The translations under genes and the position numbers were made by a program. The notes below the pieces were generated by a model. That model ran no database searches. It was not told the DNA's origin and saw only the letters and a list, made by a program, of their open reading frames with translations. A DNA stretch of 59,000 nucleotides, filler included. It is 5 parts of 5 records of this genome, joined end to end, with 100 filler letters (N's around TTAATTAATTAA, not from the genome) between each part and the next. Parts side by side here need not be neighbours in the genome. Positions count along the whole stretch, not along the records: positions 18,271 to 36,024 come from SRR31156797_12179; 4 more parts are not named here. The stretch is one strand, 5' to 3'. Positions 6,115 through 51,011 of this stretch are shown piece after piece. Each line of letters opens with the position of its first letter. The first letter of the stretch is position 1.

Positions 6115-7110
6115 ATGTTGTTAACCAAGGCGAAAAAAATGGCCGGGGCGATGAAGATCGTCCGTATGTGCGCCGACCTGAAACCGCATGAGCGGGTTTT
6201 GGTTTTGACCGATTATGAAACTCTGGAAGTAGGCGAACTGGTGTCCATGGCCGCCATACAGATTGCTTCCGAAACCGCTCTGATGGTTATTGCTCCGACG
6301 AGCGGTCACGGGGCCGAGCCTCCGGCTCAGGCTGCTCAGGCCATGATTGCTTCAGACCTGATCTTGATGCCTTTGAAATTCTCCATGACCCATGCAGCCG
6401 CCGTTAAGGCCGCCCGTAAACAGGGCGCCCGGGTGTTGAGCATGGGGGACTTCAATGCCGGAATGCTGGCTGAAGGAGGCATCGAAGCCGACTTTGATCG
6501 CTTGGCCGATGTAGTGCGTCAGACGGCCGAGTGTTTGGGCAAAGGCAATCAGGCCGAAATTCGCACTCCTGCCGGAACACATCTCACCATGGATATAGCC
6601 GGCCGGCAGGGCTTTGCCGAAGACGGTACGGCACACGAACCGGGCAGCATTGCCGGGCCGCCCAATGTGGAAGCCAACGTCGGACCTCTTGAAGGCACGG
6701 CTTCCGGAGAACTGGTGGTGGACGGCAGCATTCCTCACCCGTTGCTGGGAATAATCACGGAACCGATCCGCCTGACAGTGAACGAGGGCCGAATCACCCG
6801 CATACACGGGGGCGAGCAGGCCCAAATACTAAGCGGTCTGCTGGCGGATTTCGATGATCCCAATGTTTACAACATTGCCGAACTGGGCATTGGATTGAAT
6901 CCCTGTTCCAGTATTACCGGCAGCATGATGGAAGACGAAGGGGCGTATGGAACCTGTCACATCGGCATAGGAGACAACACTTCTTTCGGTGGAAAAGTTA
7001 AGGCCAAGACTCACCTGGACCTGGTCATGCGCCGGGCCGAAGTGGTCATTGACGGAGAATACCAGGAAAAAAACGGAAAACTACAAAACATAAAAATGAT
7101 TGATGAATAG
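6115..7110 (+). CDS. M29/aminopeptidase-T-like metallohydrolase
   Basis: TPAGTHLT, NIAELGIGLNP, EDEGAYGTCHIGIGDN, HLDLV motifs. Confidence 0.75.
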   Translation: MLLTKAKKMAGAMKIVRMCADLKPHERVLVLTDYETLEVGELVSMAAIQIASETALMVIAPTSGHGAEPPAQAAQAMIASDLILMPLKFSMTHAAAVKAARKQGARVLSMGDFNAGMLAEGGIEADFDRLADVVRQTAECLGKGNQAEIRTPAGTHLTMDIAGRQGFAEDGTAHEPGSIAGPPNVEANVGPLEGTASGELVVDGSIPHPLLGIITEPIRLTVNEGRITRIHGGEQAQILSGLLADFDDPNVYNIAELGIGLNPCSSITGSMMEDEGAYGTCHIGIGDNTSFGGKVKAKTHLDLVMRRAEVVIDGEYQEKNGKLQNIKMIDE

Positions 7111-7120
7111 GAATAAAGAT

Positions 7121-8263
7121 ATGAAGTCTCACTCGAGAGTATTAACAGGAACGCATTTCATGCTGGGCAATTTCGCCATGGTCGAAGGCGCCCTGGCCGC
7201 TGGTTGTGATTTCTTTGCCGGCTATCCGATCACTCCGGCCAATGAGATTTCGGAACGCATGTCCGAGAGAATGCCTGAAGTCGGCGGAGCTTTTTTGCAG
7301 GGCGAAGACGAGCTTTGTTCAATCTACGCTTTGTCGGGCGCGTCATTGGCCGGGGCCAGGGCAATGACCGCCACTGCCAGCGCGGGGTACAATTACATGC
7401 AGGAAGGAATCGGTTACGCCGTGGCTTCCGAAATCCCCATGGTCATCGTGGACGTGCAGCGTTGTCGTGGAGAAAATTTCGCCACACAGTCCGATGTCAT
7501 GCAGATGCGCTGGGGAGTCAGCGGCGATCATGAGATGATCGTTCTGGCGCCGTCCTCGGTACAGGAAGCATTTGATTTTACCGTTCGTGCATTCAATCTT
7601 GCGGAAAAATACCGTACTCCGGTTGTGGTCATGTCCGAAACGACCATTGCCTTGATGCGTGAAAAACTGGTCATTCCCGAACAGGACCAGATCGAAATAG
7701 TCAACCGGGTTAAGCCTGATGTCCCCCCGGCCGAATTCGTTCCTTTTCGGGCCGCGGCCGACGGTGTTCCGCCTTTTGCCGATTTAGGCGCAGGCTACCG
7801 CGTTATCCATTCCCTGAATCCCCACGACGAGTACGGCGGCATTGCCTGGGATCCGGATGTTTTTGAAGACTTGTACGACCGGATCACCGGGAAAATACAG
7901 GCCAATTACGATGACATCGTCCAGACCGAAAATTATTTTATGGACGACGCCCGTATCGTACTTGTCGCTTACGGCAGCGAATCCAGGCCCTGCCTGAGCG
8001 CGGCCGAACAAGCGCGTGAAAACGGGATGAAGGTAGGAGTGCTCAAGCTTAACACGGTCTGGCCCGTTCCCGAGCGGGAAATCCGTCAGGCGGCGGAACA
8101 AGCTGACTGTGTACTGGCCGTGGAAATGAACATGGGTAAATATGCCGGCGAGGTTGAACGTTGTTGCGGCGGGCTGACGCGCACCGTAAGGGTGACCAAA
8201 AACCGGGGGTTGATCCATACAACTACTGAAATTTATCAGGCAATAATGGAGGCGGCAAAGTGA
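7121..8263 (+). CDS. 2-oxoacid:ferredoxin oxidoreductase alpha subunit
   Basis: FFAGYPITPANEI, QGEDE, VEMNMG motifs; start could be 7103 or 7121. Confidence 0.92.
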   Translation: MKSHSRVLTGTHFMLGNFAMVEGALAAGCDFFAGYPITPANEISERMSERMPEVGGAFLQGEDELCSIYALSGASLAGARAMTATASAGYNYMQEGIGYAVASEIPMVIVDVQRCRGENFATQSDVMQMRWGVSGDHEMIVLAPSSVQEAFDFTVRAFNLAEKYRTPVVVMSETTIALMREKLVIPEQDQIEIVNRVKPDVPPAEFVPFRAAADGVPPFADLGAGYRVIHSLNPHDEYGGIAWDPDVFEDLYDRITGKIQANYDDIVQTENYFMDDARIVLVAYGSESRPCLSAAEQARENGMKVGVLKLNTVWPVPEREIRQAAEQADCVLAVEMNMGKYAGEVERCCGGLTRTVRVTKNRGLIHTTTEIYQAIMEAAK

Positions 8264-18381: not shown

Positions 18382-18999
18382 CTAATTGCTTACACTATAA
18401 TATTCTTGTAAATCTTTTTTTAGTGTTTTATAATTTAATATTTCGCAGCCTTCATGGTTATACTCATTTTCTAGTCCAGCATAATACACTTCGGCTTTCT
18501 CTTTATCAACCAAATAATATACTCTATTTTCTTCGTATATGAATCCCAATATTAAAGCCTTATATATTGCATATTTGCCTTTTTCATACACCTTAATAAA
18601 TGCTCTTTCAAATTTAGAATCAATTATTTTATTTCCCTCATAACTTAGAAATTCTACTTTTCCATATTTAAACTCATTTATTTTTATATATTCATTTGGA
18701 CAATAATCAAAGCCATTATTAATCCTCGCCCAATCTACATAACCCTCAAAACTAGTTGATACATGTTTTAACCTATTTGATGTATATAACGTGAAAAAAA
18801 TTTTTATATAATCTAGGTCTAGCATATCAACAACTATTAATTTATCAGCATCTTCCCAATCATTTAAGCTAGCATTCCATGCAACTTTTACTTCATCACA
18901 ACTTTTCTTATATACATAGCCAATCATTATATCTTTCGTCTTATTGTTACTTATCTTATCAAAGTTGTTTTTATGGACAACAACATCACCTATTCTCAT
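18382..18999 (-). CDS. Hypothetical protein
   Basis: 205-aa ORF with AAGGA RBS; no recognised motif. Confidence 0.65.
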   Translation of the reverse strand: MRIGDVVVHKNNFDKISNNKTKDIMIGYVYKKSCDEVKVAWNASLNDWEDADKLIVVDMLDLDYIKIFFTLYTSNRLKHVSTSFEGYVDWARINNGFDYCPNEYIKINEFKYGKVEFLSYEGNKIIDSKFERAFIKVYEKGKYAIYKALILGFIYEENRVYYLVDKEKAEVYYAGLENEYNHEGCEILNYKTLKKDLQEYYSVSN

Positions 19000-19213
19000 A
19001 ATCTTTTCCTTTCATATAGTAGTTTCTACAGTTTCGTAATCTGGAAATTTCATGACGCAATTCGTGACTATATATTGACGCAAATGTTTTATATCTATTT
19101 TTTTCTTCTTGATTCATACAACTCTCTCTATTACTTATATTTGTTAATGCAAAAATCTATAATTGTGAAATAGGCTATTATGTTTTTTATAGTTATTATA
19201 TGTTAAGATTACA

Positions 19214-19810
19214 TCATTCATATATCGACTCTAAGTCAACATGTCTTGATAATTTCGTAGTAATCTGCGAATAATAATCATCAATAATATCATAGCACTT
19301 TCTAACTTCAGAAGAATAAGTATCACTGCTCCCTCTTTCATTTCCATCGGTTCTTTCATACATGTTCCAAAGAAGCTCGTTGAAATTCTTTGCATAATTT
19401 TTGTAACTGTGAATTATGTAAAATATTTTATCATTCTCTAAGTCTAATCTCATCAAATAGAGTAAATCCGAGAGCTCATCAACCATCATAGAATAGTTAT
19501 TCACCTCTGCTCCAGAAATACTCTTAGCCATTAGTCCACTTGAAACATTTCTTACCTTGTATACCAATGATGCCAATTTTTTGTAATAACTTATCTTTAT
19601 GCGTAATTGTTCTTTTTGTAACTCACTCTTATTTAATAGCTTCACTCGCTCCCGTTCTTCATCTAATAAGTATTTGGATTTGTAGGAAACCAGATTTTTC
19701 TGATGCTTGTAGTTTTGTCTGTTCTCAAGTAGCACCTTAAGTACAGCTGAAAGAATCGTTGATAAAACTGTCGACCCTAACACTATTGTAATTATTTCAA
19801 CATTACTCAT
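19214..19810 (-). CDS. Hypothetical protein, N-terminal TM plus helical region
   Basis: GGAGG RBS; hydrophobic IITIVLGSTVLSTILSAVL. Confidence 0.7.
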   Translation of the reverse strand: MSNVEIITIVLGSTVLSTILSAVLKVLLENRQNYKHQKNLVSYKSKYLLDEERERVKLLNKSELQKEQLRIKISYYKKLASLVYKVRNVSSGLMAKSISGAEVNNYSMMVDELSDLLYLMRLDLENDKIFYIIHSYKNYAKNFNELLWNMYERTDGNERGSSDTYSSEVRKCYDIIDDYYSQITTKLSRHVDLESIYE

Positions 19811-19861
19811 AATGCCTCCTTATAAAACTATGCTTAAATATATGTTTAATACCTTTTTTAC

Positions 19862-20422
19862 TCACTTCTTTTTAGGTCCAAAACTATAATATACTCTTGA
19901 GTGACCTGCATGAGTATGGGGACCATTGACATCAAACCCCCCATCATTTAAATTCCACGAATATTCTCCATCAACTTTTACTAATCTTGATAAGACATCA
20001 AAACTTACTATGGAATAAGATGTATACCTTATCTCTACACTCTCATTACCTTTACGCACTCTATCTGCATACCCAAACTTAATGCTAGGATTTAATTCAG
20101 AAATTTCCTTAAGAATGCTCATAATTTCATTAGGAAAAGAGTGATATACGCAGCCGAAATGAACCAATATGTAAACAGGATTAAACTCGCCAATTACATT
20201 TTTTAATCTTCTTAACACCTTCTCAAAATCCATTTTATCTACTTTTCTTTCTGGCTCATCGTACTTTTGTCGGTTGCGCACTTTCTCTTGATTTTCTGCA
20301 TTCACTGGATAAAAATAATGAATATCAAAATCTTCTAATCTCCTACCTTGTCTAATAAAATCTCGTTTCATTTTTGATATTGAATCATCAACCGATTCGA
20401 ACATTAATATTCTTTTTTTCAT
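19862..20422 (-). CDS. Hypothetical protein
   Basis: Probable start MKKRILMFES after AGAGGA; no recognised family. Confidence 0.6.
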   Translation of the reverse strand: MKKRILMFESVDDSISKMKRDFIRQGRRLEDFDIHYFYPVNAENQEKVRNRQKYDEPERKVDKMDFEKVLRRLKNVIGEFNPVYILVHFGCVYHSFPNEIMSILKEISELNPSIKFGYADRVRKGNESVEIRYTSYSIVSFDVLSRLVKVDGEYSWNLNDGGFDVNGPHTHAGHSRVYYSFGPKKK

Positions 20423-20583
20423 ACCTATTCCTCTCTTAATGATTGTATCTTTTGCTATACGAATATCACTCTTATCGATTTTATTAGTAAAAAAATTAAT
20501 CACCTTCAATAGTTGTAGAAACAAAAATAATTGACTCCACGTTTTCTTAAGTGTCAAAATTCACTACATTTAGATATAGTATA

Positions 20584-21756
20584 CTATATTTTCTTATCAA
20601 AATTATTAGCTAACCAGTTTTCAACATTGTTTACTGAGGTAATACCTAGTTTTTTCAATATATTAATAATATCTTTTGCACAAACTATTATAATTGGATG
20701 TCCATCCTCCTTAATTTCTTTATAAGCTTGATGGTGTACATATGACGTAGTAATAAGCATTCCAAACTGCCTATACCTTAATCTGGATATTAAACGTGAA
20801 GTTTCTTTAACTCCAACCGCATTGTTCAAACCATACCTTTTTGCTTCAAGCGCAAAATCCACTAAAATAGAATTATCCTGTAAACCGATTTTGTATTTAC
20901 CTACTGCATCTCTTCCCCCATCAACCCACGGTCTCGTTAGATCACATTCGATAATATTCCTATCCATAAGTTTTACCAGTTCTACAGCACATGGTTCAAA
21001 AGAATACCCGTCTTCAAAATAATTATATATAGCATTTATTATTTTTACACCATCTTTGTCTGGTATTTGTTGTTCCTTATTTCTGTATTCTACTGTTTTT
21101 TCTGCCTTTAATGGTGTGTATACTCCATTATCAACCCATTTTACATAATTACTCGGCGTATTCTCAGTTATAATATTACCTGATTTCAAATCATCAATCC
21201 ATGCTCGAGTAATTGAGACTACATCTAATATTGTGAATATTGATTTATAGTTTTGAAACCTCATGCCTTCTTTAACTTTCCAAATTGCAACTAAATCTTC
21301 AAATGATGTTAAATTATACGATCCCGGTACAGCAAGCCCTTTAAAAACAACATCTCTTCCATTTGCTCCTTTAGTAAAAACAAAAAAAGGTGGTATATTG
21401 TATCGTTCATTACTATGTAATGCATCAAAACAATCCTTTAAAATCAAATTTCCCTTCTTCTTAGTTTTATATAAATCAGTTCCTGGCTTCTTATTGTCTC
21501 CAAAGTATGTAAATGTTCCAGTTTGATAATCTAAATTATCTGGCCAATCAGGATTAGTTAAGGTTGAATACAATACTACAAAAGAATTTGTGTATTTTTT
21601 ATGAGATTTTTTTAATCTAAATCCTCCCTGATTTCCACAGCCTAACAAAATAGTTAATGGATCATCACTTGAATTTCCCTGAGAACCCCCTTTATACAAG
21701 GCATCAACAAATAAATCTGCATCTTTTAATTCATTAAAATTTATAACTTTTTGCAT
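20584..21756 (-). CDS. AspBHI/MspJI-like modification-dependent restriction endonuclease (SRA-like plus Mrr-type nuclease)
   Basis: ADLFVDALYKGG, GNQGGFR, WPD..YFGDNKKPG, FKGLAVPG; C-terminal DGGRDAVG..FALEAKRY and RLISRLRYRQFG. Confidence 0.8.
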   Translation of the reverse strand: MQKVINFNELKDADLFVDALYKGGSQGNSSDDPLTILLGCGNQGGFRLKKSHKKYTNSFVVLYSTLTNPDWPDNLDYQTGTFTYFGDNKKPGTDLYKTKKKGNLILKDCFDALHSNERYNIPPFFVFTKGANGRDVVFKGLAVPGSYNLTSFEDLVAIWKVKEGMRFQNYKSIFTILDVVSITRAWIDDLKSGNIITENTPSNYVKWVDNGVYTPLKAEKTVEYRNKEQQIPDKDGVKIINAIYNYFEDGYSFEPCAVELVKLMDRNIIECDLTRPWVDGGRDAVGKYKIGLQDNSILVDFALEAKRYGLNNAVGVKETSRLISRLRYRQFGMLITTSYVHHQAYKEIKEDGHPIIIVCAKDIINILKKLGITSVNNVENWLANNFDKKI

Positions 21757-21988
21757 GAATCCCCCCATATCATGCCATTTTTTAGGTGCAGCTTTTATCT
21801 AGACATCACTATTCATTTTACTTAATAATATCTTAGATTGAACTACTAAAATAGCATCACATCATAATATATCGATTGTTATTTTTTACCTACTTAATTA
21901 TAAAACTAATACATAATAAAATCAATAAAATGCTTTGTTATTAGTAAACATGTGATATACTTATTACATAATTATTTAGGAGTATTTT

Positions 21989-23404
21989 ATGATAAAACAG
22001 TATGATGAAACTGATATTTATTCCATACTTGATTTTTCCAAGAAACTAGAGAAAACCACATTAAGAAAATACCTTGGAGAAAATGAATACTTTTACAATC
22101 AGAAGCATAAGGGTGCATTAGGCAATATTGTCGAAAGTGAATTTTTTGGTTACGCTATTAATTCTAAAAAAGAAGCTGACTTTAAAGAAGCTAAAATGGA
22201 ACTTAAAGTTGTTCCTATTAAAAAAATCAAAAAGAAACCTAGTTCTGAATTATTAATAAAACAACTTGGATTAAGCGCAAAAGAAAGAATTGTTTTATCA
22301 ATTATACAGTATGATGAAATTATAAATGAAACTTGGACTACAACAGAGCTGCATCATAAATTAGACAAAATCCTAATGATGTTTTATCAGCATGAAAAGA
22401 AACTAAGTCCATATGATTTATTATTTATTTTATCATCAATATGGGAACCATTGCAAGAAGATTTACCCTATCTACAAAAGGATTGGGAATTAATACAATC
22501 TAAGATTGTAGCAGGGAAAGCACATGAGCTATCTGAAGGAGATACACTGCTATTAGGAGCATGCACTAAAGGGGTTACTAGTAATTCTACACGCAAACAA
22601 CCAAACAGTGATGTACCTGCTATGCAACGAGCTTTCTCACTTAAAAGGTCGTATGTAGACCATATTTTTAATAGATTATATGCTGATGACTTAGAAACCA
22701 AAAATATTATACCACTAGATATTTATAGCAAAATCATAGTAGAGTTCAATAAGATTAAATATCAACCACTACAGAATCTCTTTAGCAAGTATAGTATAAG
22801 TGTAAATAGACAGGCAAAGCAATTTTTGTATCTAGTAACCTCAGCTTTATTCGAACAATTAATGGAAATTACTTCAAATGAGTTTAACGAAAACAATATT
22901 GCTGAAATAGAAATCAAAACCATTCTTTTAAAAAGTAATAATATACCTAAAGAAAGTATGTCGTTTGAACAAATTAAGTTTGATGAAATCATTGAAGAAG
23001 ATTGGCTGGATTCGGAGTTTAGATCTAAATTTGAAAATAAAAAACTACTATGGTTTATTTACAAAACAAATAAACCTTATAAAAATCAAAGAGAACTTGA
23101 TTTATCGGATATTTTCTTTATTGATTTATTTTACTGGAACATGCCTATCTCTGATTTGGATAGTTCAGTAAGAGAATTGTGGGTAGACACTGCTGAGAAA
23201 ATAAAAAATCAAAATTTCTATAATTTTAAAAAATTATCAGAAACAGAAGTTGCTCACGTAAGACCAAAAGCCACAAATAGCAAAGATTTATCATGGCTAA
23301 AATCGGGGATAAACGCACCAAAAAGAAGTTTTTGGCTAAATAACAAGTATGTTGCTAGACAGATCAAAGATTATATGAGTAACAACCAAAACAAGATGTA
23401 CTAA
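21989..23404 (+). CDS. Sau3AI/MutH-family type II restriction endonuclease
   Basis: HKGALGNIVESEFFGY..EADF..ELKVVP, AKER, HELSEGDT, ACTKG, QRAFSLK; second repeat KESMSF..HVRPKA..FWLN. Confidence 0.88.
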   Translation: MIKQYDETDIYSILDFSKKLEKTTLRKYLGENEYFYNQKHKGALGNIVESEFFGYAINSKKEADFKEAKMELKVVPIKKIKKKPSSELLIKQLGLSAKERIVLSIIQYDEIINETWTTTELHHKLDKILMMFYQHEKKLSPYDLLFILSSIWEPLQEDLPYLQKDWELIQSKIVAGKAHELSEGDTLLLGACTKGVTSNSTRKQPNSDVPAMQRAFSLKRSYVDHIFNRLYADDLETKNIIPLDIYSKIIVEFNKIKYQPLQNLFSKYSISVNRQAKQFLYLVTSALFEQLMEITSNEFNENNIAEIEIKTILLKSNNIPKESMSFEQIKFDEIIEEDWLDSEFRSKFENKKLLWFIYKTNKPYKNQRELDLSDIFFIDLFYWNMPISDLDSSVRELWVDTAEKIKNQNFYNFKKLSETEVAHVRPKATNSKDLSWLKSGINAPKRSFWLNNKYVARQIKDYMSNNQNKMY

Positions 23405-23416
23405 TCTATAGGTTTA

Positions 23417-24619
23417 TCATTCTTTCTCTATTATCTTGCTGATTTCTACTCCTAATTTCTCTACAATACCAACAACTAAGGCATTTCCCATACAAAAATA
23501 CCTGAATCTATTTGACATTCCTGTATTAGTCCATCCTTTAGGAAATCCGTTCAAAGCTTCGCATTCATCCGGTGTTAACTTTCTCAATTTATTTGATTCG
23601 GGATCCCTTATTACGTGAGTTGATCTATTTATCGAGGACTCACTTGTAAGCATTGTGCGTGCCGGTCTATCTATTGGATCCGGGAACGCTATACCTCCTT
23701 CTGCAAAGATATATTTATGTCCATCCTTATGCGTCCGCTGAATCTTCTTAGGTCCTTTGAGATACTCCCATTTAGACAAATCACTACCTATATAATACTC
23801 TTCAGCAACATTACAATCTAATATTGTTTCGAGCGGTACAGCTTTAGGTTTTATAGCTTTTAAATCAACTGTATATAGGTCATCATTCATTAAACATCCT
23901 GCATTCCAAAATTTTGTCTTAAATGCATCAGATATCTCTTTAATATTATCCATATCAAATTTTAATTTATTTACTCGCTTTAAATCATAAGATTGAGCTG
24001 GAAACGTACTTTGGAATAATCCGTTCTCAGAAACCATTTCTTCACTAGTAATTTTGCCTAAAAAATTTGATGCATATTTTGTGGTATTTTTAAAGGCATA
24101 AATAAACACACGCCTTCTTCTTTGTGGGAATCCATAATCTGCAGCGTTTATAACTCTCCATTCGACTGAATATCCTTGTTCTTTTAGACACCCTAATATT
24201 ACTCCAAAATCTCTACCTCGTTGTGAAGTTGGTGATTTTAGAAGCCTGTCTACATTTTCAAGAAGCAAGAAACTCGGTTTTTTATGTTTAATAATTTCAT
24301 AGATATTCCACCATAAAACACCCTTCTTCCCTTCGATGCCTTTTGCACCTGTTGAAGCCACACTATAGTCTTGACAAGGAAAGCCTCCAACTAAAAGAGT
24401 ATGGTTAGGAATATTTCTTATTTTCACTTCATTTATATCAATATTAGTATGATTTTCACTTTCCCCAAAGTTTGCTATATAGCAATCATATGCATCCTGT
24501 GATTTGCGGCCGGGTTCCCACTGATTAACCCATATCGTTTCAAACTTTTTATCAGCTCGTTCTAAACCAACTCTAAAGCCACCCACACCAGCAAATAACT
24601 CAACCACTGTCTTCTTCAT
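23417..24619 (-). CDS. C5 cytosine DNA methyltransferase (M.Sau3AI-like, probably GATC)
   Basis: ELFAGVGGF, GGFPCQDYS, LENVDRLLKSP, PQRRRR, MGNALV; GGAGGA RBS; convergent with the Sau3AI-like REase. Confidence 0.92.
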   Translation of the reverse strand: MKKTVVELFAGVGGFRVGLERADKKFETIWVNQWEPGRKSQDAYDCYIANFGESENHTNIDINEVKIRNIPNHTLLVGGFPCQDYSVASTGAKGIEGKKGVLWWNIYEIIKHKKPSFLLLENVDRLLKSPTSQRGRDFGVILGCLKEQGYSVEWRVINAADYGFPQRRRRVFIYAFKNTTKYASNFLGKITSEEMVSENGLFQSTFPAQSYDLKRVNKLKFDMDNIKEISDAFKTKFWNAGCLMNDDLYTVDLKAIKPKAVPLETILDCNVAEEYYIGSDLSKWEYLKGPKKIQRTHKDGHKYIFAEGGIAFPDPIDRPARTMLTSESSINRSTHVIRDPESNKLRKLTPDECEALNGFPKGWTNTGMSNRFRYFCMGNALVVGIVEKLGVEISKIIEKE

Positions 24620-24638
24620 CACTATCCTCCGTTTATCC

Positions 24639-24667
24639 ATTATACATTAGTTATAGAAAAAGATCAA
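24639..24667 (-). promoter_or_regulatory. Sigma70-type promoter of the methyltransferase; -35 box contains GATC
   Basis: Minus strand TTGATC-17 nt-TATAAT just upstream of the RBS. Confidence 0.7.
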
Positions 24668-24747: not shown

Positions 24748-24784
24748 AAAAAACAGAACTACCCAATACAATTAGATAGTTCTG
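24748..24784 (-). terminator. Intrinsic terminator of the repeat sRNA
   Basis: CAGAACTATCTAA-TTGTA-TTGGGTAGTTCTG-TTTTTT; G.U pairs valid only on the minus strand. Confidence 0.8.
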
Positions 24785-24930
24785 CTATGGTTAGTTTAGT
24801 TCTGGTGTCTGCCACCGCACCAGCACTCGAAGTCTGGCAAAAAGTTCAGATTTAGTTATGGTGTCTGTCACCGCTCTAGCACTCGAAGTCTAGAAAAAGC
24901 TGCAGATTGAAACGTGCTAACCCACGTATT
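24748..24930 (-). ncRNA. Putative ~180-nt sRNA with two tandem 56-nt structured repeats
   Basis: Perfect promoter upstream, terminator downstream; repeats 24795-24850 and 24851-24906 (47/56 identical) with compensatory stem changes. Confidence 0.65.
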
Positions 24931-24936
24931 AACACT

Positions 24937-24965
24937 ATTATAATACTACTGCAAAAAACTGTCAA
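24937..24965 (-). promoter_or_regulatory. Consensus sigma70/sigmaA promoter
   Basis: Minus strand TTGACA-GTTTTTTGCAGTAGTAT(17)-TATAAT. Confidence 0.85.
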
Positions 24966-24983
24966 TAATGATAGTTACTACGT

Positions 24984-25310
24984 TTACTTTTTAACAAATC
25001 GTTCTCCATATACTGCGCCTCCTGTTATAATCAAATCTCCACTTTCTTCTACTGCTTTAAACAGTGTGTTTGAGTATAGACCCGAACCTTCTATTAGTAT
25101 GTCATAGCCTTCATCTGTTTTCTCGTATGTACCCTCAAAGTACTTATCAGCTTGTGTCCATAGACACTTCCCAAACGCCTTAAACTCTACATTATAAAAC
25201 CCTGTTTCGCTTGTATATGTGCCAGATAATTCACCACATGCAGTTGATGATAAAATCACAGCTGTGACTACTGTAGCACATAATATTACTCTTAATACTT
25301 TCTTATTCAT
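24984..25310 (-). CDS. Small lipoprotein
   Basis: AGGAGG RBS; MNKKVLRVILCATVVTAVILSSTA-CG signal with lipobox-like Cys. Confidence 0.75.
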   Translation of the reverse strand: MNKKVLRVILCATVVTAVILSSTACGELSGTYTSETGFYNVEFKAFGKCLWTQADKYFEGTYEKTDEGYDILIEGSGLYSNTLFKAVEESGDLIITGGAVYGERFVKK

Positions 25311-25444
25311 AATCCTCCTATTATTGGTAGATACCATATCACTTGCATCTACATGTTACATTATATGTTACAAATTATAACATATTAAACACATTCATTC
25401 AAACATAAACTAGAACTAACGAATATTATAGGGAGTTAGTATAG

Positions 25445-30266: not shown

Positions 30267-30432
30267 GGCATCTTTTGATATTCATGTCAAAAGTGCCATT
30301 GCGTTACTTTTGACAAAAGTAACAAAATCGTCGAGTATTAGACTTTCGCTTATAAATCAACATAGCCACATTGCCTGTCTTAAAGAAATGGCAAGGTTGC
30401 CAAAATCATTAAGGGGCAAACTTGGCAACCTT
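30267..30432. promoter_or_regulatory. Candidate oriT/ori region with inverted repeats
   Basis: GTTACTTTTG-A-CAAAAGTAAC (30303-30323), AAGGTTGCCAA/TTGGCAACCTT (30393-30432), CTTTTGA..TCAAAAG; lies between rep and mob. Confidence 0.55.
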
Positions 30433-30437
30433 AATCA

Positions 30438-31403
30438 TTAAGGCAAACTCCAAAACCATTTGTTGCCCTCTTTTTTGGATATAATTCCTAGCCTTCTTTT
30501 TGCTCTATCCAATGTTCTTTTTGAAATATGCATAAGGTTTGCTTTGTTTAATATAACCTTTTGCTCCTGTTGCCTGTCGCTTAAAATATCTATTAACATC
30601 TTTTCGGCAATCCGTCCTTTACTCTCTCGTCCACCAGCCAATAAATCATCTATTGAAATATCATAATGCCCAAGCCACTCAAAAGCGTTTTCACGGCCAA
30701 GCCTAAATGCTAGAGGTTTGCCCTCGGAAGCAAGAGAACTTTTTAGTTGTGCAACTATTCTAACTTGTGGATCATCGTCAATCCTACCAACAACTAATAC
30801 ACTTCGTGCAGCTGCCTGTAAATCAATTGATCCCAGTCCTCTGTATGCTGACTTTGTGCCATTTGCCTTGTTCATATGTCCAATTAGCACAATAGCACAA
30901 TCATTCTCTTCTGCGACTACACTTAAGTGCTTCATGATAGGGCGGATTTCATTTGCCCTGTGCATATCTACACCACTACCCAAATAGCCTTGAAGAGGGT
31001 CTAGGATTACTAGCTTTGCTTGTGTTTTCTTTATAGCTTGCATGAGCCTTTCATCTGTCATGAAAAGTGGAGTATTAAAATCATCTATTACCATAATCCT
31101 ATTGCAATTTGCATTAGCTCTATCTAACCTTGGCTTAATAGTGTCACTAAGCCCATCCTCTGCAGATTGATAGATAATGTTTATAGGTTCTTGGTGTTTA
31201 TTGTTTTCAGGGAGTTGTCCTCCTCTGCTTAAAATAGCTGCAAGGTGCAGAATAAAAGTCGTCTTACCTTGCCCAGGATCTCCTTGAATAATAGTGATTT
31301 TGCTCATGGGAATGTATGGATAAAAAAGCCATTTTACCTCTGTAGCTTTTACGTCTGCCATACTAAAAATGTTTAGATTATCATCATTAAAATCTTCATA
31401 CAA
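30438..31403 (-). CDS. AAA-family (RepA-like) ATPase/helicase, probable replication protein
   Basis: VKWLFYPYIP, QGDPGQGKT Walker A, VILDPLQ Walker B, GHMNK, RGLGS; C-terminal wHTH. Confidence 0.82.
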   Translation of the reverse strand: MYEDFNDDNLNIFSMADVKATEVKWLFYPYIPMSKITIIQGDPGQGKTTFILHLAAILSRGGQLPENNKHQEPINIIYQSAEDGLSDTIKPRLDRANANCNRIMVIDDFNTPLFMTDERLMQAIKKTQAKLVILDPLQGYLGSGVDMHRANEIRPIMKHLSVVAEENDCAIVLIGHMNKANGTKSAYRGLGSIDLQAAARSVLVVGRIDDDPQVRIVAQLKSSLASEGKPLAFRLGRENAFEWLGHYDISIDDLLAGGRESKGRIAEKMLIDILSDRQQEQKVILNKANLMHISKRTLDRAKRRLGIISKKEGNKWFWSLP

Positions 31404-31781: not shown

Positions 31782-31986
31782 ATTATCCTCCTAAAATGTT
31801 ATTCAAATACAGTACAAATATTATATACATTGACATATGTTATCACTAATTTTATAATATTATGATAGCTATATATGCTATGAATTATAGTATAATTCGC
31901 AATATCTGTCAATGGGTTTATATGCAATTAATGAATCGATGACATGATTAATAGGTGTTTTACTGAATTGTGTAAGGTGGATAAGA

Positions 31987-45846: not shown

Positions 45847-46407
45847 ATGGGGTTACTTGATAATCATACAAACCGGCACAAAGTTTTTGTAAGTTACCAT
45901 CATGCAAATGACCAATTATATCGAAATTTTTTTGAAAAGTTCTTTTCTGATACATATGATATAATGGTATCAAAATCTGTCCAAATTGGAGATATTGACT
46001 CAAATCTAAAGACTGATACTATTCGTCAAAAAATTAGAGATGAATATCTCCGGGATTCCACCGTGACGGTTGTTTTAATAGGGGCTGAAACATGGAAACG
46101 TAAACATGTAGATTGGGAAATTGGGGCAAGTATAAGAGCCACCCAATATAATCCACGATCTGGATTGTTGGGCATTGTATTGCCGACTTACCCCAGGTCA
46201 AGCCAACAAAACTACTCCCGCTATACTATTCCACCAAGGCTTTATAAGAACATTGAATGTAAGTTCGCAAAAATTTACAATTGGAGCGAGAATCCAAGCT
46301 CTGTCCACAGCTGGATTCATGAAGCTTTTTTAAGAAGAAATGAGGTAAATCCCGATAACTCTTATCCCAATTTTGTGAATAATCGTTCAGGGGAAAGGTG
46401 GTATTAA
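45847..46407 (+). CDS. TIR domain protein, ThsB/DUF1863-like
   Basis: HKVFVSYHHAND, DSTVTVVLIGAETWKRKHVDWEI with catalytic Glu, GLLGIVLP; AAGGAG RBS. Confidence 0.9.
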   Translation: MGLLDNHTNRHKVFVSYHHANDQLYRNFFEKFFSDTYDIMVSKSVQIGDIDSNLKTDTIRQKIRDEYLRDSTVTVVLIGAETWKRKHVDWEIGASIRATQYNPRSGLLGIVLPTYPRSSQQNYSRYTIPPRLYKNIECKFAKIYNWSENPSSVHSWIHEAFLRRNEVNPDNSYPNFVNNRSGERWY

Positions 46408-46880
46408 TGAAGTGGGAAAAATGGTTAGAAAAATGGGATATGACATCCCTCAAAATAAAAGTACCATTTCTTGATATGGAATGGAAACCCCAAGATGAGG
46501 ATAAAAAAGCCGCATGGGAGCTTTATATTGAACTTTTGACGCGAATTACCACACAGCCTCTTGATCTAAAGCATGGGGATGAAGAAACCGCTTTAAAAAG
46601 CATATATTCAATATTTCCTATTTCCCGCGAAGTAATGAAAAATAATGGTCGGCACTGCATGGAATTTACAAAAATCGCAGTGATTGTTCTAAACCAGGTA
46701 GTCAGGCCATTTACGGCTAAATGGCATGGAGTTCTGACCAAAAAGGGGTTTGAGTCTCCTAAAATATGCGCTGAATTTAGAGACGAATTAGAGGAACTAC
46801 AGGCTGTTTTAAAAAACTATACAAAAATGCTCGCAGATATGGCTGGGGTAGAAGATTTGACCGAAATGGAAAAAAATTAA
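46407..46880 (+). CDS. Helical protein of unknown function coupled to TIR
   Basis: TAATG stop/start overlap with the TIR gene; AAWELYIELLTRITTQPL, VLNQVVRPFTAKWH. Confidence 0.8.
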   Translation: MKWEKWLEKWDMTSLKIKVPFLDMEWKPQDEDKKAAWELYIELLTRITTQPLDLKHGDEETALKSIYSIFPISREVMKNNGRHCMEFTKIAVIVLNQVVRPFTAKWHGVLTKKGFESPKICAEFRDELEELQAVLKNYTKMLADMAGVEDLTEMEKN

Positions 46881-46971
46881 CGACACTCCAAATTATTATA
46901 AAAGACTCAATATGGCCCCTTTTTTTTGAAAGAGGGGTGGGAAATATGTATGTTTAAATTGAGGAATTAAA

Positions 46972-47412
46972 ATGCCTGGGAATGATAAATCTTGTATTGA
47001 TGAGATTGATTTTATAAAAGCTGAGCAGATGCATGCTGCCGCTTTACAAATAAGCAAAACGTGTTTTGATTTTAAGAAATTGTGTGTTTCATTTTTGGGC
47101 GTTGCAATGGCTGTCCTTATAAAGTTCACAGGCAAACATGTCGACCACAGTTTCTTTGTTGTCGGGCTTATTATAATCATCGGTTTTTGGATTTCAGACG
47201 CCACAGCATATTACTATCAAAAAAGCCTTCGACAACGAATTGATATTCAATTTAAACAAATTGCGGCTCGAAATGATATAGCCAGTATGCCAGAGTTGTC
47301 GAAAACAAACGCAAAGGAAGCACTTTTTAATCCATCAATGTTTTTGTACTATATACTTGGATTGCTTTTTATAGGTTCTTGGGTGTCATTTTCCGCAGGA
47401 TGGATAAAATAG
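46972..47412 (+). CDS. Small membrane protein (~3 TM), candidate TIR-linked effector
   Basis: GAGGA RBS; hydrophobic LCVSFLGVAMAVLI, FFVVGLIIIIGFWISD, MFLYYILGLLFIGSW. Confidence 0.78.
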   Translation: MPGNDKSCIDEIDFIKAEQMHAAALQISKTCFDFKKLCVSFLGVAMAVLIKFTGKHVDHSFFVVGLIIIIGFWISDATAYYYQKSLRQRIDIQFKQIAARNDIASMPELSKTNAKEALFNPSMFLYYILGLLFIGSWVSFSAGWIK

Positions 47413-47415
47413 GAT

Positions 47416-47778
47416 ATGCGAATTTTTGTGAGTTATACAACCCGGGATAATTATCTGAACGAAAAACGTCTAAAAGAAGTTTTCATTGTGATGAAACAAT
47501 TCGGTCAGACCTATATCGATTTATTGCACAATGATTCAAAAGACCGGCAAAGAAGGGTTGAAAATGAATTGGCCCAATCATCTACTGTTGTTTTTCTTGA
47601 AACCTCTGCTATTTCAGAATCTTTTTGGTTTATGAAAGAAAAAAATCTTGCCATTAAACATCAAAAAAGATGTGTTGAAATTCCCATAGACGATTCTTTG
47701 AAATGGGCAGACACATTATATTTAATCAAAGTATCGATGGAAACCGTCATCAATAAACGTGGCCTGAGCAACTTATAA
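47416..47778 (+). CDS. Stand-alone minimal TIR domain protein
   Basis: RIFVSYTTRD, YIDL, SSTVVFL, SESFWFMKE with Glu at the expected catalytic position. Confidence 0.75.
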   Translation: MRIFVSYTTRDNYLNEKRLKEVFIVMKQFGQTYIDLLHNDSKDRQRRVENELAQSSTVVFLETSAISESFWFMKEKNLAIKHQKRCVEIPIDDSLKWADTLYLIKVSMETVINKRGLSNL

Positions 47779-48015
47779 GGCGGCACTTTTCGTTCGATTT
47801 AAGACAGGTTCAAGATTTTATGGATATTATCCCATGTGTCACTTGTTACCCTTTTGAAAAAAGCCCGTATGAAGTGGGAATTTGCGGTCTTTCCAGCCCT
47901 CGACAAATGGCGGGGGAAGGACCCATAGTGACAATGGTTTTATCCTTGAATTTTTCGGACAGAAATACTTATCAATCATTTAAATTTCAAATACTTTAAG
48001 CAGAGACACAAACTC

Positions 48016-48939
48016 ATGAAATATTTATTGACGTGTTGGCATCTGGGGGGGGGGGCCGAAATCGAAATTGAGAAAGAAAAATTCGAAGATATAAAAATTG
48101 CAAAAGAAATTTTGATTGCCTCATTGGCGATAGAAGAAAAGTATGAATTGCTTCTTTCTAATTATATTGAATTTGAAAATGAGCTTTTAAATTCCAGCAC
48201 AGACTTTATGGTAAGGCGGTCTTCAGACCTTTCAGGTTATTTTGATATTCGATTACTTTTTAATCGCAGAATTGTAAACTTATTAACATCAACAAAATTG
48301 TATATAGATCAAGCATCCAGTCACATCAAAAATTGTTTTTCTAAAAAAGAAGATATAGGTCAAAAAGTAAAATCTTATTTCTCTGAAGAATATGACAAAA
48401 ATTTTGAATATCGTTTTTTGGAAGCTTTGCGAAATTATGTGCAGCACAGGGGGCTGGCCGTTCATTTAACTTCGCAACATATGAGTTGGAAACCTCCGAT
48501 AAAACATGAAAAGTTAGAATTTAGCCAGTCTTTATTTTCCAAAAAAACTGATTTAATGGAAGACAAGGTTTTCAAAGCTCAGGTCCTTGATGAAATGCCG
48601 GATGAAGTTGAATTAATTCATGCCGTTCGAAGCTATATTAGCTCGTTAAGCAGAATACACGGGAATAATAGAGAATTGCTGGCAAAAAAATCGGAATGGG
48701 CCAGGGATATTTTAGAAAAAGTAATTCATGATTATGAGCTCCAAAATGAAGGAGATTCGATTGCTCTATCTGTTGTTATTCAAGATTGTGTTAATTCAAA
48801 AACAGAAATTATTAAAAAAATTCCTATTTCCCTCGAATGGGATAATATCAGATTAAAAATGGTAAAAACAAATCAAGTATTAAACAATTTAGAGCAAAGA
48901 TATGTATCTGGTATGCCACATAAAGAGCGGTCTAAGTAG
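48016..48939 (+). CDS. Putative HEPN-domain (RxxxxH) protein
   Basis: Helical pattern; NLLTSTKLYIDQ and YRFLEALRNYVQH. Confidence 0.6.
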   Translation: MKYLLTCWHLGGGAEIEIEKEKFEDIKIAKEILIASLAIEEKYELLLSNYIEFENELLNSSTDFMVRRSSDLSGYFDIRLLFNRRIVNLLTSTKLYIDQASSHIKNCFSKKEDIGQKVKSYFSEEYDKNFEYRFLEALRNYVQHRGLAVHLTSQHMSWKPPIKHEKLEFSQSLFSKKTDLMEDKVFKAQVLDEMPDEVELIHAVRSYISSLSRIHGNNRELLAKKSEWARDILEKVIHDYELQNEGDSIALSVVIQDCVNSKTEIIKKIPISLEWDNIRLKMVKTNQVLNNLEQRYVSGMPHKERSK

Positions 48940-48969
48940 AAAAAGGCCCCCGGCCATTGACCAGGGGCC
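48940..48969 (-). terminator. Terminator between converging genes
   Basis: GGCCCC..GGGGCC stem with A-run on the plus side (U-tract on minus). Confidence 0.6.
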
Positions 48970-48981
48970 AGAATTGATTAA

Positions 48982-49580
48982 TTATTCATAAGCCAACCGC
49001 CTTTCCTGGGCCATCATGCCCCGCATGTTATCCATTGCGCTTGTCACTCCATCTTGAACGGCCTGGGTCACGGCTTTGTGATCTGCACCGGCCCCGACAC
49101 TAACCGGGATTGTGATAGAATTTTCTTGCCGTATATTGGACGTGGCCCCCCGGCCTTGTGGCATACGGTCCACGGCCCGAACAAAGGGGCGGGACGTTTC
49201 CGGGGTTTTTTCTTGTTTGAATAAGCGACCAACCAGGGGGATTCTTTTCATGACGGAACCAATCTTATTCCCGATATCAAAGAATAGTTGTTTAATCGGT
49301 TCCCAATGCTTCCAAACCTGATAGGCGGCCAAGCCCACACCGGCAACCGCCGCACCAATAGCAAGCACCGTACCGGATATGGGGGCCGTAACCAAAGCCA
49401 ATCCGGCAAACCCGGCCTTTAATCCCGCCAGGACAGGCCCCAGGGTTGCAAGCCCACCAAGAGCAAAACTAATACCAGAAACAGCAGCCCCCAGGGTCAA
49501 AGCACCCGTGACAAGGCCACCAATGGCAATTGTCCCCCCGGCAATGATTTTTGTCAGGGTTTGGTGTTCCCTGAAGCGGT
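48982..49580 (-). pseudogene. Phage tail tape-measure protein, C-terminal fragment
   Basis: Ala/Gly-rich amphipathic run, AAYQVWKHWEPIKQLF; N-terminal part missing. Confidence 0.72.
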
Positions 49581-50214
49581 CTTGGCCCAAGCCGCCTCAG
49601 AGGGTCGGCAGGGTAGTTTCTCTGCTGCTGTATCAAACCTCCTGGGATCATTGAGCGGCCAACAGGGTATCTCCGTCAGCACCATACTCAGCCTTGCAGA
49701 CACGGTACCGGACTTGAGCGGCAAACTCGGGATCCAGGGGCCGATCGCTGCGGAAGTATCCCTTGCAGCCCAATTGTTCGGGACCAACGGCAGCGGCCAG
49801 GTGATAACCGAGGGGTCGCTTAATAGCATCACCGAAGCGATAGGTGCGGAAATTTTCGGGCAAGCAGGGAATTCAGGAACCTTGGCCGGGCAGCTTGTTG
49901 CCGCGGCCTCACTTGCCGGGAAACTTGGAGCCAGCGGATCCTATACCATGCAGCTTGACGGCATATCTGCCATGATTGAGGGCATTTTGGGGGTGTCCGG
50001 ACAGATCATCACAACGGTGTCAGCCGGGGCAAATATGGCTGGGAAAATAGGAGTGTCTGCAGATGTGATCACCGCCTTGTCAGACCTGGACCTTCAGCTA
50101 ATCGAATTCACCATTTCGGATCAAATCCACCGGATTATTATATCAACAAAAACCGGGCAGGCCATATTTCTGGCCCCTAAGACCGGAACTATAGATTTTT
50201 CAATAGAAACATAA
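49561..50214 (+). pseudogene. Phage-like Gly/Ala/Ser-rich protein, probably 5'-truncated
   Basis: Repeated xGxxGxSG units; no RBS; abuts the opposite-strand tape-measure fragment. Confidence 0.5.
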
Positions 50215-50223
50215 GGAGGCCCC

Positions 50224-50631
50224 ATGACATTAGGAGTCGCAGTATCATTAAGAAACGCTTATCTCAACACCCTTCGGGATGCAATCGATGGGGGCACGGC
50301 AGAGGGGGAAATTAAATTTTATACCGGCGTCCGGCCGGCAACCGGGGGGGCCTTGTCCGGCAATACCCTCCTTGGCATTGTTAATTTCAGCGATCCCTGC
50401 GCACCTGATGCAGTAGGCGGTGTGCTGACTTTTAACAGTTTTATCGATGATGACAATGCCGATAATAACGGGCAGGCTGCCTGGGCAAGGATCACGGACA
50501 GCGAGGATAATTTCGTGACCGATGCCAGTGTGGGGCTTTCCGACGCGGACATTATCCTGAACAGCTTGGACATTGCCCAGGGCGGAATTATCCGGGTCAC
50601 CTCCGGAACCCTGACAGCTGGGAATGCGTGA
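50224..50631 (+). CDS. Phage-like structural protein
   Basis: AAGGAGG RBS; RNA.L..I.FYTG.RPA..G.AAWARI pattern recalled from phage tail-region proteins. Confidence 0.6.
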   Translation: MTLGVAVSLRNAYLNTLRDAIDGGTAEGEIKFYTGVRPATGGALSGNTLLGIVNFSDPCAPDAVGGVLTFNSFIDDDNADNNGQAAWARITDSEDNFVTDASVGLSDADIILNSLDIAQGGIIRVTSGTLTAGNA

Positions 50632-51011
50632 TGAGTCAGCCTAAAGTTGGGGAAGGAAAAACGTCTTATCATGAGTATTCTCTTTTAAAGCCGGCTCCCG
50701 ATCCTGTTCCGGCTGAAGCCGTTTCTATTGACGGGCAGCCTTATATCCCTGTAGAAACAGTGGAAGCCTTGAAGTATAAATTGTCTGACGGTTATGAGGA
50801 CCTGCTTCCCTGGACAGAACTTCCTTTAGAAACTACCGGAGTCATTGAAATTCCAGGGCACATAAATCGTGTTTCGAATCGTAGGCGGACTCGGATATTA
50901 ACTCTGTTTGCGGTTCATGACGGTGGGAAACACTTACCCATGGAGATATCCTATACTCTGGTCGATTGCTCCGGCATTACGGCGGAAACTGAGCCCAAAA
51001 CTCAGATTTAG
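50628..51011 (+). CDS. Hypothetical phage-like protein
   Basis: GTGA overlap with the previous gene; 127 aa. Confidence 0.55.
   Translation: MMSQPKVGEGKTSYHEYSLLKPAPDPVPAEAVSIDGQPYIPVETVEALKYKLSDGYEDLLPWTELPLETTGVIEIPGHINRVSNRRRTRILTLFAVHDGGKHLPMEISYTLVDCSGITAETEPKTQI

Follow-up and report, generated by a model that had tools for sequence, protein, structure and literature searches.

A candidate small-RNA gene was found on the minus strand of the window, the whole stretch of 59 kb of DNA that was analysed. As judged from its sequence and predicted structure, the RNA belongs to a conserved, so far uncatalogued family, and at most sites in phages and plasmids its relatives are followed directly by a gene encoding a protein of the PBECR4 family (PF18813), a predicted RNase. 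With moderate confidence in the reading as a whole, we consider the copy in the window to be an orphan antitoxin-type RNA of this PBECR4-linked family, left behind by an exchange of cargo.

The gene is predicted to be about 184 nt long, from 24930 to about 24747. It is preceded by a promoter of the form TTGACA, a 17-nt spacer and TATAAT (24965-24937), which agrees with the consensus at all 12 positions and whose spacing places the candidate transcript start near 24930. Exact copies of this pattern number three in the window, whereas 100 shuffles give an expectation of 0.04, and all three fall inside one low-GC island. The other two (31830-31858 on the plus strand and 31884-31912 on the minus strand) are divergent and lie between the AAA_25 and DUF6076 genes. 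Tandem Repeats Finder reports a repeat of period 56 with 2.0 copies and 86% matches at 24795-24908, and the ungapped comparison of the two 56-nt units, in the register starting from 24908, gives 47 identical bases out of 56. No ATG and no ribosome-binding site were seen in the transcript on reading its sequence. Every feature listed in the earlier note was found in place: the perfect promoter, the two tandem repeats, a strong terminator (a 16-pair hairpin followed by a T run), an RNA of about 180 nt with no convincing ORF, pair-preserving differences between the two repeat hairpins, HP1 and HP2, and, in the first repeat copy, a pseudoknot in which the loop CAGA pairs with TCTG past an A-rich linker.

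The predicted minimum free energy of the RNA is -54.7 kcal/mol; with a z-score of -2.86 and 2 of 200 shuffles equally stable, the fold energy by itself is just moderately unusual. Such a value would fit a chance repeat accompanied by fortuitous promoter- and terminator-like sites, or an element acting at the level of DNA. We regard a feature of this kind as extremely improbable, since covariation, conservation across phyla and the constant orientation of the RNA between promoter and terminator, all described below, argue against it.

The Rfam scan suggested in the earlier note returned no Rfam 15 family at the gathering score, either in the window or in 11 related loci, and a permissive scan of two stretches (E up to 10) produced only noise, with no relevant family. 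The RNA thus belongs neither to ToxI, CptI or TenpI nor to any known riboswitch or curated motif. Two known types of small pseudoknot are similar in outline. The STAXI motif, one of the Rfam families, consists of small pseudoknots in tandem and is found on mobile elements in the vicinity of DNA-modification and anti-restriction genes; the window RNA and the 11 related loci differ from it by the same lack of an Rfam 15 match. Riboswitches of the preQ1-I type are H-type pseudoknots in which the stem is short, the loop pairs with a segment on the 3' side and the linker is rich in A. Unlike them, the RNA considered here has no match to their covariance model, unconserved loops and no visible expression platform.

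The relatives were collected by several routes. A blastn search with the RNA gave no match among plasmids and one weak match among phages (E 5e-3), in a 6.9-kb phage record. There, a similar promoter, two tandem units of about 57 nt and a terminator are followed directly by a PBECR4 ORF. When 185,579 species genomes were scanned for a degenerate 22-nt motif, six loci emerged in Lactococcus, Streptococcus and Lactobacillus, five of them with PBECR4 directly past the terminator. When the PBECR4 protein was used as the query, tblastn found 14 phage and 95 plasmid records, and eight loci of each kind were inspected (16 of the 109 PBECR4-bearing records). The RNA is present upstream of PBECR4 in all eight inspected phage loci and adjoins it in six of the eight plasmid loci, five times upstream and once, in L022, tail-to-tail. 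It was not found in L021 and L023, the most distant of the plasmid loci with a PBECR4 domain. The relatives share an upstream promoter of their own and a downstream intrinsic terminator, as read in their sequences.

The phages and plasmids that carry the RNA come from Lactococcus, Streptococcus, Lactobacillus, Enterococcus, Erysipelothrix, Macrococcoides, Latilactobacillus, Lactiplantibacillus, Pediococcus, Ligilactobacillus and the gammaproteobacterium Avibacterium. The Enterococcus version of the RNA was observed in 79 plasmid records, compared with 76 Enterococcus records for PBECR4. The window RNA is 40-61% identical to any other member. It scores 97.4 bits (E 1.4e-22) with the family covariance model R2 and 90.1 bits with R1, where the window sequence is itself one of the ten seed rows and the E-values are rough.

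The core of the RNA, about 145 nt, comprises three hairpin and A-rich-tail modules, two spacer hairpins sitting between them and three pseudoknot helices (the window features are listed in the table). Every family member contains the three modules, each consisting of a hairpin of 4-5 bp, an A-rich tail and a short segment, with the exception of the RNA of L022 (1969-2106, minus strand, Ligilactobacillus plasmid), in which both pseudoknots are local and no clear module 0 is seen; this RNA represents a simpler form within the family. In module 1, the loop pairs with its own segment s1 and a local pseudoknot results. The loops of the outer modules pair reciprocally over a long range, loop 0 with s2 and loop 2 with s0, and these swapped helices are predicted to clasp the 5' end of the RNA to its 3' end. 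In the window RNA all eight helices are intact, with six Watson-Crick pairs in loop0:s2, four in loop1:s1 and five in loop2:s0. The earlier note had described two structured repeats. Both are present, but the third module at the 5' end (24927-24912) and the two long-range helices had been overlooked, and with them the RNA is one integrated fold and not merely two repeats.

Candidate features of the RNA gene and its immediate neighbours in the window.
Feature	Position	Strand	Remarks
117-aa ORF upstream of the RNA	24984-25337	-	signal-peptide/lipobox-like N-terminus (translation read); no family match
-35 hexamer TTGACA	24960-24965	-	promoter match 12/12
-10 hexamer TATAAT	24937-24942	-	promoter match 12/12
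Module 0 hairpin	24912-24927	-	stem 24927-24923 with 24916-24912 (5 bp); stem columns covary
Module 0 loop GGTTAG	24922-24917	-	6 nt
Segment s0 TCTGC	24902-24906	-	after short A-rich tail; pairs with module 2 loop, long-range, 5 bp
Hairpin HP1	24875-24894	-	5 bp, bulged G, 3 bp, 3-nt loop; 6/6 pairs double-changed
Module 1	24847-24872	-	4-bp stem, 5-nt loop (24872-24860); local H-type pseudoknot
Module 1 A-rich tail	24859-24851	-	
Segment s1 TCTG	24850-24847	-	helix 98.6% of cells paired
Hairpin HP2	24819-24838	-	diverged copy of HP1 with pair-preserving changes; helix covaries
Module 2	24789-24816	-	stem-loop 24816-24804, A-rich tail 24803-24795
Segment s2 CTAACC	24794-24789	-	pairs with module 0 loop, long-range
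Intrinsic terminator hairpin and T run	24748-24786	-	stem 24786-24752, 16 pairs (4 G-C)
C-5 cytosine DNA methylase gene	23417-24640	-	PF00145, E 3.9e-69; occupies the place of PBECR4 in relatives

The paired sequences vary among lineages yet remain complementary. For example, loop 0 and s2 are GGTTAG and CTAACC in the window, AGTCGG and CCGACT in streptococci, and GCTTGA and TCAAGC in the Erysipelothrix phage. Modules 1 and 2, together with their hairpins, are near-copies of each other within one RNA and diverge between lineages, which would fit two equivalent binding sites co-evolving with a partner. Two other descriptions of the fold were rejected. The register in which each loop pairs with a segment upstream of its own module fails in L005 and in the streptococcal RNAs, and the relatives that had seemed to be forms with a single pseudoknot contain three modules according to the covariance model.

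The covariation among homologues that the earlier note had named as a check proved to be strong. Among 18 distinct sequences in a model-fitted alignment, paired cells make up 93.5%, compared to 63.7% after shuffling, and 26 of 26 pairs have changed on both sides; the covariation score was reached by none of 500 shuffles, and slid controls have 20-47% of cells paired. For the hairpin stems, the respective values are 91.9% and 67.1%, with 22 of 25 pairs double-changed. The columns of the module 1 pseudoknot, the one seen in the earlier note, covary as well, with four of four pairs changed on both sides. L011, misregistered by the model R2, was left out of alignments A5 and A6. The wobble-pair support for the strand is weak, as the excess of G-U over A-C cells is modest (18 vs 8 and 16 vs 11).

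Since model-fitted alignments lean toward the fitted structure, two further checks were added. Firstly, RNAalifold applied to a plain unfitted MAFFT alignment predicts the long-range helix between loop 0 and s2, with six of six pairs double-changed. Secondly, in an alignment-free test on nine lineages, the partner segments were sought in unaligned sequences, with the hairpin stems located from alignment A2. The cognate pairings 0-2, 1-1 and 2-0 have on average 5.3, 4.0 and 4.1 bp, whereas the other combinations of loop and segment have 2.2-2.9 bp and the non-cognate lineages 2.1-2.7 bp; the observed sums were reached by none of 5000 permutations. In six plasmid loci obtained after the rule had been set, the means are 4.3, 3.8 and 3.7 bp, the exception being L022 with its local pairing.

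PBECR4 is located at most 1000 nt downstream at 20 of the 23 RNA sites, in a single frame at 17 of them and split over two frames at three. The sites lacking it are the window, L003 and L022. In this count L011 was given the coordinates of its near-identical relative L012, and near-duplicate loci (L001/L002, L001b/L009, L006/L007 and L011/L012) are included. The list of genes downstream of the relatives, which the earlier note had called for, agrees with the type III antitoxin-like layout proposed there. In both phages and plasmids, the solo PBECR4 gene starts within a few dozen bases past the RNA terminator. When the PBECR4 frame is followed back toward the RNA, it meets a stop codon before reaching it at 11 of the 17 single-frame sites; the RNA is thus outside the PBECR4 ORF. 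In phiLC3 (L012), only the 3' part of PBECR4 is annotated.

The prediction that PBECR4 is an RNase comes from its Pfam family and from one paper, the accessible part of which defines the PBECR domains as predicted metal-independent RNases of the BECR fold, with an active-site histidine, from phages and conjugative elements (PMC5512222). The motif N-x-M-H-L-C-G is invariant in 22 aligned PBECR4 sequences. An AlphaFold model with pLDDT 89 has no significant structural neighbour in PDB (best E 0.42), and no relative was found in PDB by sequence; thus the RNase fold of PBECR4 rests on the Pfam assignment. PADLOC 2.0 contains no model for PBECR4.

The order of promoter, structured RNA, terminator and gene is also that of a transcription attenuator. 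The RNA could be a cis-acting leader, similar to an attenuator or a riboswitch, that senses a signal and sets read-through into PBECR4 in the relatives or into the methylase gene in the window. Indeed, pseudoknots with A-rich tails recall small pseudoknot riboswitches, and s2 ends 2 nt ahead of the terminator hairpin. However, the terminator stem shares no bases with the three pseudoknot helices, so that no switch is visible; the loops and their partners vary freely and form no conserved pocket; and no riboswitch model matches. Moreover, the RNA is kept where it has no downstream target, in L022, where it is tail-to-tail with PBECR4, and in L003, where the next unit has a promoter of its own. 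Given this balance, a cis-acting role is distinctly unlikely.

The RNA has been retained at several sites where the protein has not. In L005, L014 and L015, PBECR4 is split over two frames and the RNA is intact. In L003, a Streptococcus sanguinis prophage, a ToxIN cassette (7074-7900, minus strand) occupies exactly the position of PBECR4 between the same flanking genes. Upstream of this cassette, which consists of 41-nt repeats and a gene for ToxN (E 2.2e-39), the three-pseudoknot RNA has been kept. ToxN was seen in L003 only, with its own 41-nt repeats. This persistence of the RNA where PBECR4 is split, or replaced as in L003 and the window, is expected for an antidote.

The tight linkage between the RNA and PBECR4 shows only that the two work jointly, and near-identical modules 1 and 2 within each RNA fit two equivalent protein-binding sites of any kind. 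Both observations would also suit an RNA serving as a cofactor, guide, sensor or preferred substrate, in which case the pair would be an RNA-dependent nuclease and not a toxin-antitoxin system. We consider this even a little less probable than a leader, as a cofactor, unlike an antidote, would not be expected to survive the splitting or loss of its protein, and the intervening terminator, like that of type III systems, reduces the amount of protein compared with that of RNA.

The promoter, structured RNA, terminator and RNase-type gene, the linkage to PBECR4 and the persistence of the RNA, taken together, suggest that the RNA silences PBECR4, and the gene order points to an antitoxin function. 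In phages and plasmids, the RNA would be transcribed from its own promoter and end at the terminator ahead of PBECR4. It would then bind and silence the protein, while terminator read-through would hold the output of the toxin under that of the RNA. It might be speculated that the A-rich tails mimic the substrate of PBECR4. Two observations do not fit this scheme easily. Known type III antitoxin RNAs are runs of identical short repeats, whereas the RNA considered here appears as one integrated unit and not as a run of identical processable repeats; and the tail-to-tail arrangement in L022 is at odds with co-transcription.

Several known systems are similar to the one described here. Judging from the accessible parts of the literature, ToxIN, CptIN and TenpIN share with it the promoter, the repeated pseudoknotted RNA, the intrinsic terminator and the endoribonuclease gene (PMC3401426, PMC13682666, PMC13064643), as well as carriage by plasmids and prophages and an RNA that outlives the toxin gene. 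The differences are that the partner here is PBECR4 and not a member of the ToxN/CptN/TenpN family, and that the RNA folds as one unit of three modules, with two swapped long-range helices. The earlier note had compared the layout with that of ToxI, CptI and TenpI; the RNA is not a relative of these, given the lack of an Rfam match and a partner outside the ToxN family. As regards the features of type III systems, tandem direct repeats are present in the window as two 56-nt units and a diverged 5' module, whereas an endoribonuclease gene past the terminator is absent from the window and present in the relatives.

Type III systems include, as described in the accessible part of PMC13064643, both ToxN/AbiQ and the HEPN proteins AbiF and AbiV with upstream ncRNAs. 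The latter are analogous to the pair considered here in that an upstream structured ncRNA neutralises an RNase and that they are phage- or plasmid-borne (PMC13064643, bioRxiv 10.1101/2025.04.15.648962). In contrast, the toxin there is a HEPN protein and here a predicted BECR one, the RNAs are unrelated, and the accessible text of these reports describes no pseudoknot clasp.

The RNA gene of the window is located in an island at approximately 18,000-44,000 with 28-35% GC, compared to 41-54% in the flanks; the island contains a mobilisable element and a glycosyltransferase cluster. FolE encoded in the flank is 87-93% identical to proteins from Marinimicrobia/Fidelibacterota assemblies, and the island looks foreign to its host. 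On the minus strand toward the RNA, the island encodes a tyrosine integrase, an AAA_25 ATPase, a Mob_Pre relaxase, a ParA-type ATPase and a ParB_N protein, followed nearer to the RNA by a protein with a weak zincin (MPTase-PolyVal) match, an IrrE/M78 protein and the 117-aa ORF; the plus strand between the integrase and ATPase genes carries a gene for a DUF6076 protein. Past the RNA there is a defence cluster (20584-24640) composed of the C-5 methylase, a convergent MutH/Sau3AI-like endonuclease and an AspBHI-like type IV enzyme. The earlier note had assigned to the next gene the role of a DNA methyltransferase with its own promoter; the enzyme is indeed a C-5 methylase, but the promoter-like site ahead of it (24667-24639) is weak, with a match of just 10/12. 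Past the cluster, three ORFs (18382-20557) have no family match. No tRNA genes were found in the window. This gene content identifies the island as an integrated mobilisable element, with the RNA just ahead of a restriction-modification cluster. No close relative of this element was found.

Two further loci in the window were noted. A 27-nt tandem repeat (1.9 copies, 30404-30457) at the start of the AAA_25 ATPase gene, adjoining the relaxase gene, may be iteron-like. The region 45847-51011, with an ORF for a ThsB-like TIR protein (PF08937, E 1.5e-19) followed by several ORFs with no Pfam match, may be another defence locus.

No PBECR4 was found in the 59-kb window with 132 queries and a profile, and a Pfam scan of its 59 ORFs revealed no toxin, in agreement with the earlier note, which had recognised none. 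The ORFs 18382-18999 and 19214-19810, considered as candidate toxins, have no similarity to PBECR4; these two, the ORF 19862-20557 and the 117-aa ORF have no meaningful match in Pfam or PADLOC, and the 117-aa ORF resembles a lipoprotein. Since PBECR4 is absent and a restriction-modification cluster is in its place, the window RNA is best described as an orphan of the antitoxin type. Both of the earlier suggestions, an orphan antitoxin-like RNA and a new class of ncRNA on a mobile element, fit this situation. The cargo behind the RNA would have been swapped for the restriction-modification cluster while the RNA gene stayed, and an exchange of the kind visible in L003 is the simplest history for the window copy.

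Additional genes were observed around two of the related loci. In L015 (2026-3628), a phage-labelled Enterococcus record, three matches to the type I antitoxin RNA RatA flank the PBECR4 locus. In L023 (1372-3403), a Lactobacillus gasseri plasmid, a relaxase gene is followed by a gene for a longer, 297-aa PBECR4-domain protein with no RNA and then directly by a DNA cytosine methyltransferase gene. This gene order resembles that of the window; however, the methylases are 25% identical, and thus do not support an ancestral arrangement common to the two.

As the window RNA appears to be intact and expressible, it could retain the ability to neutralise a matching PBECR4 that is produced elsewhere in the cell. 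One possibility is that it has been selected for this, the island keeping the toxin-less RNA as a decoy that would, on entry into a new cell, disarm the addiction or abortive-infection modules with PBECR4 that resident prophages and plasmids carry, much as a phage pseudo-ToxI suppresses ToxN. The perfect consensus promoter and the eight helices kept intact at 40-61% identity to other members are consistent with a selected function, as is the setting, a low-GC island that carries genes for an integrase, a relaxase and ParA/ParB-like, zincin and IrrE-like proteins within a genome of higher GC content. There is also a precedent, as the accessible part of PMC3475682 describes a phage pseudo-ToxI, an antitoxin-like RNA on a toxin-less mobile element that acts by molecular mimicry of ToxI; an escape function was demonstrated there, whereas the decoy role of the window RNA is putative. 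However, neither a matching PBECR4 in the host, as far as covered by the window, nor any other partner was found; the lineage-specific hairpin sequences argue for narrow specificity; the other fully toxin-less copy, in L003, is explained by a simple swap of cassettes; and the intactness of the RNA may just reflect recent loss of the toxin. We therefore consider a selected decoy unlikely. The same holds for the combined claim that the RNA and PBECR4 form a new, widespread type III-like family, with a BECR-fold RNase as toxin, a three-pseudoknot clasp RNA as antidote and frequent carriage by Enterococcus megaplasmids and prophages of lactic acid bacteria, and that the window copy is a decoy retained in a distant phylum.

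No RNA partner of PBECR4 is described in the non-subscription full-text literature searched, and none is mentioned in the accessible parts of PMC5512222, bioRxiv 10.64898/2026.08.28.747851 and PMC11134301. A catalogue of candidate structured RNAs from 2021 lists, in its accessible part, five candidates of 33-66 bp, some instances of which lie at most 5 kb from PBECR4 (PMC8040213), and these may be an earlier partial sighting of fragments of the RNA. The pair would bring together a new putative toxin family and a new RNA in the layout seen for toxin-antitoxin systems of type III.

If the antitoxin reading is true, the family would provide an RNA antitoxin for the BECR fold, whose partners in the literature searched have so far been proteins, acting in immunity or as antitoxins. 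The swapped-pseudoknot architecture of the RNA is unusual and has strong covariation behind it, and the RNA family could readily be proposed as an Rfam entry and taken up in structural work. Toxin-less copies such as that in the window allow a direct test of RNA decoys on mobile elements. The pair is frequent on plasmids of Enterococcus as well as in dairy and streptococcal prophages and, again if the reading is true, may influence how plasmids are maintained and phages resisted in organisms that matter to medicine and industry.
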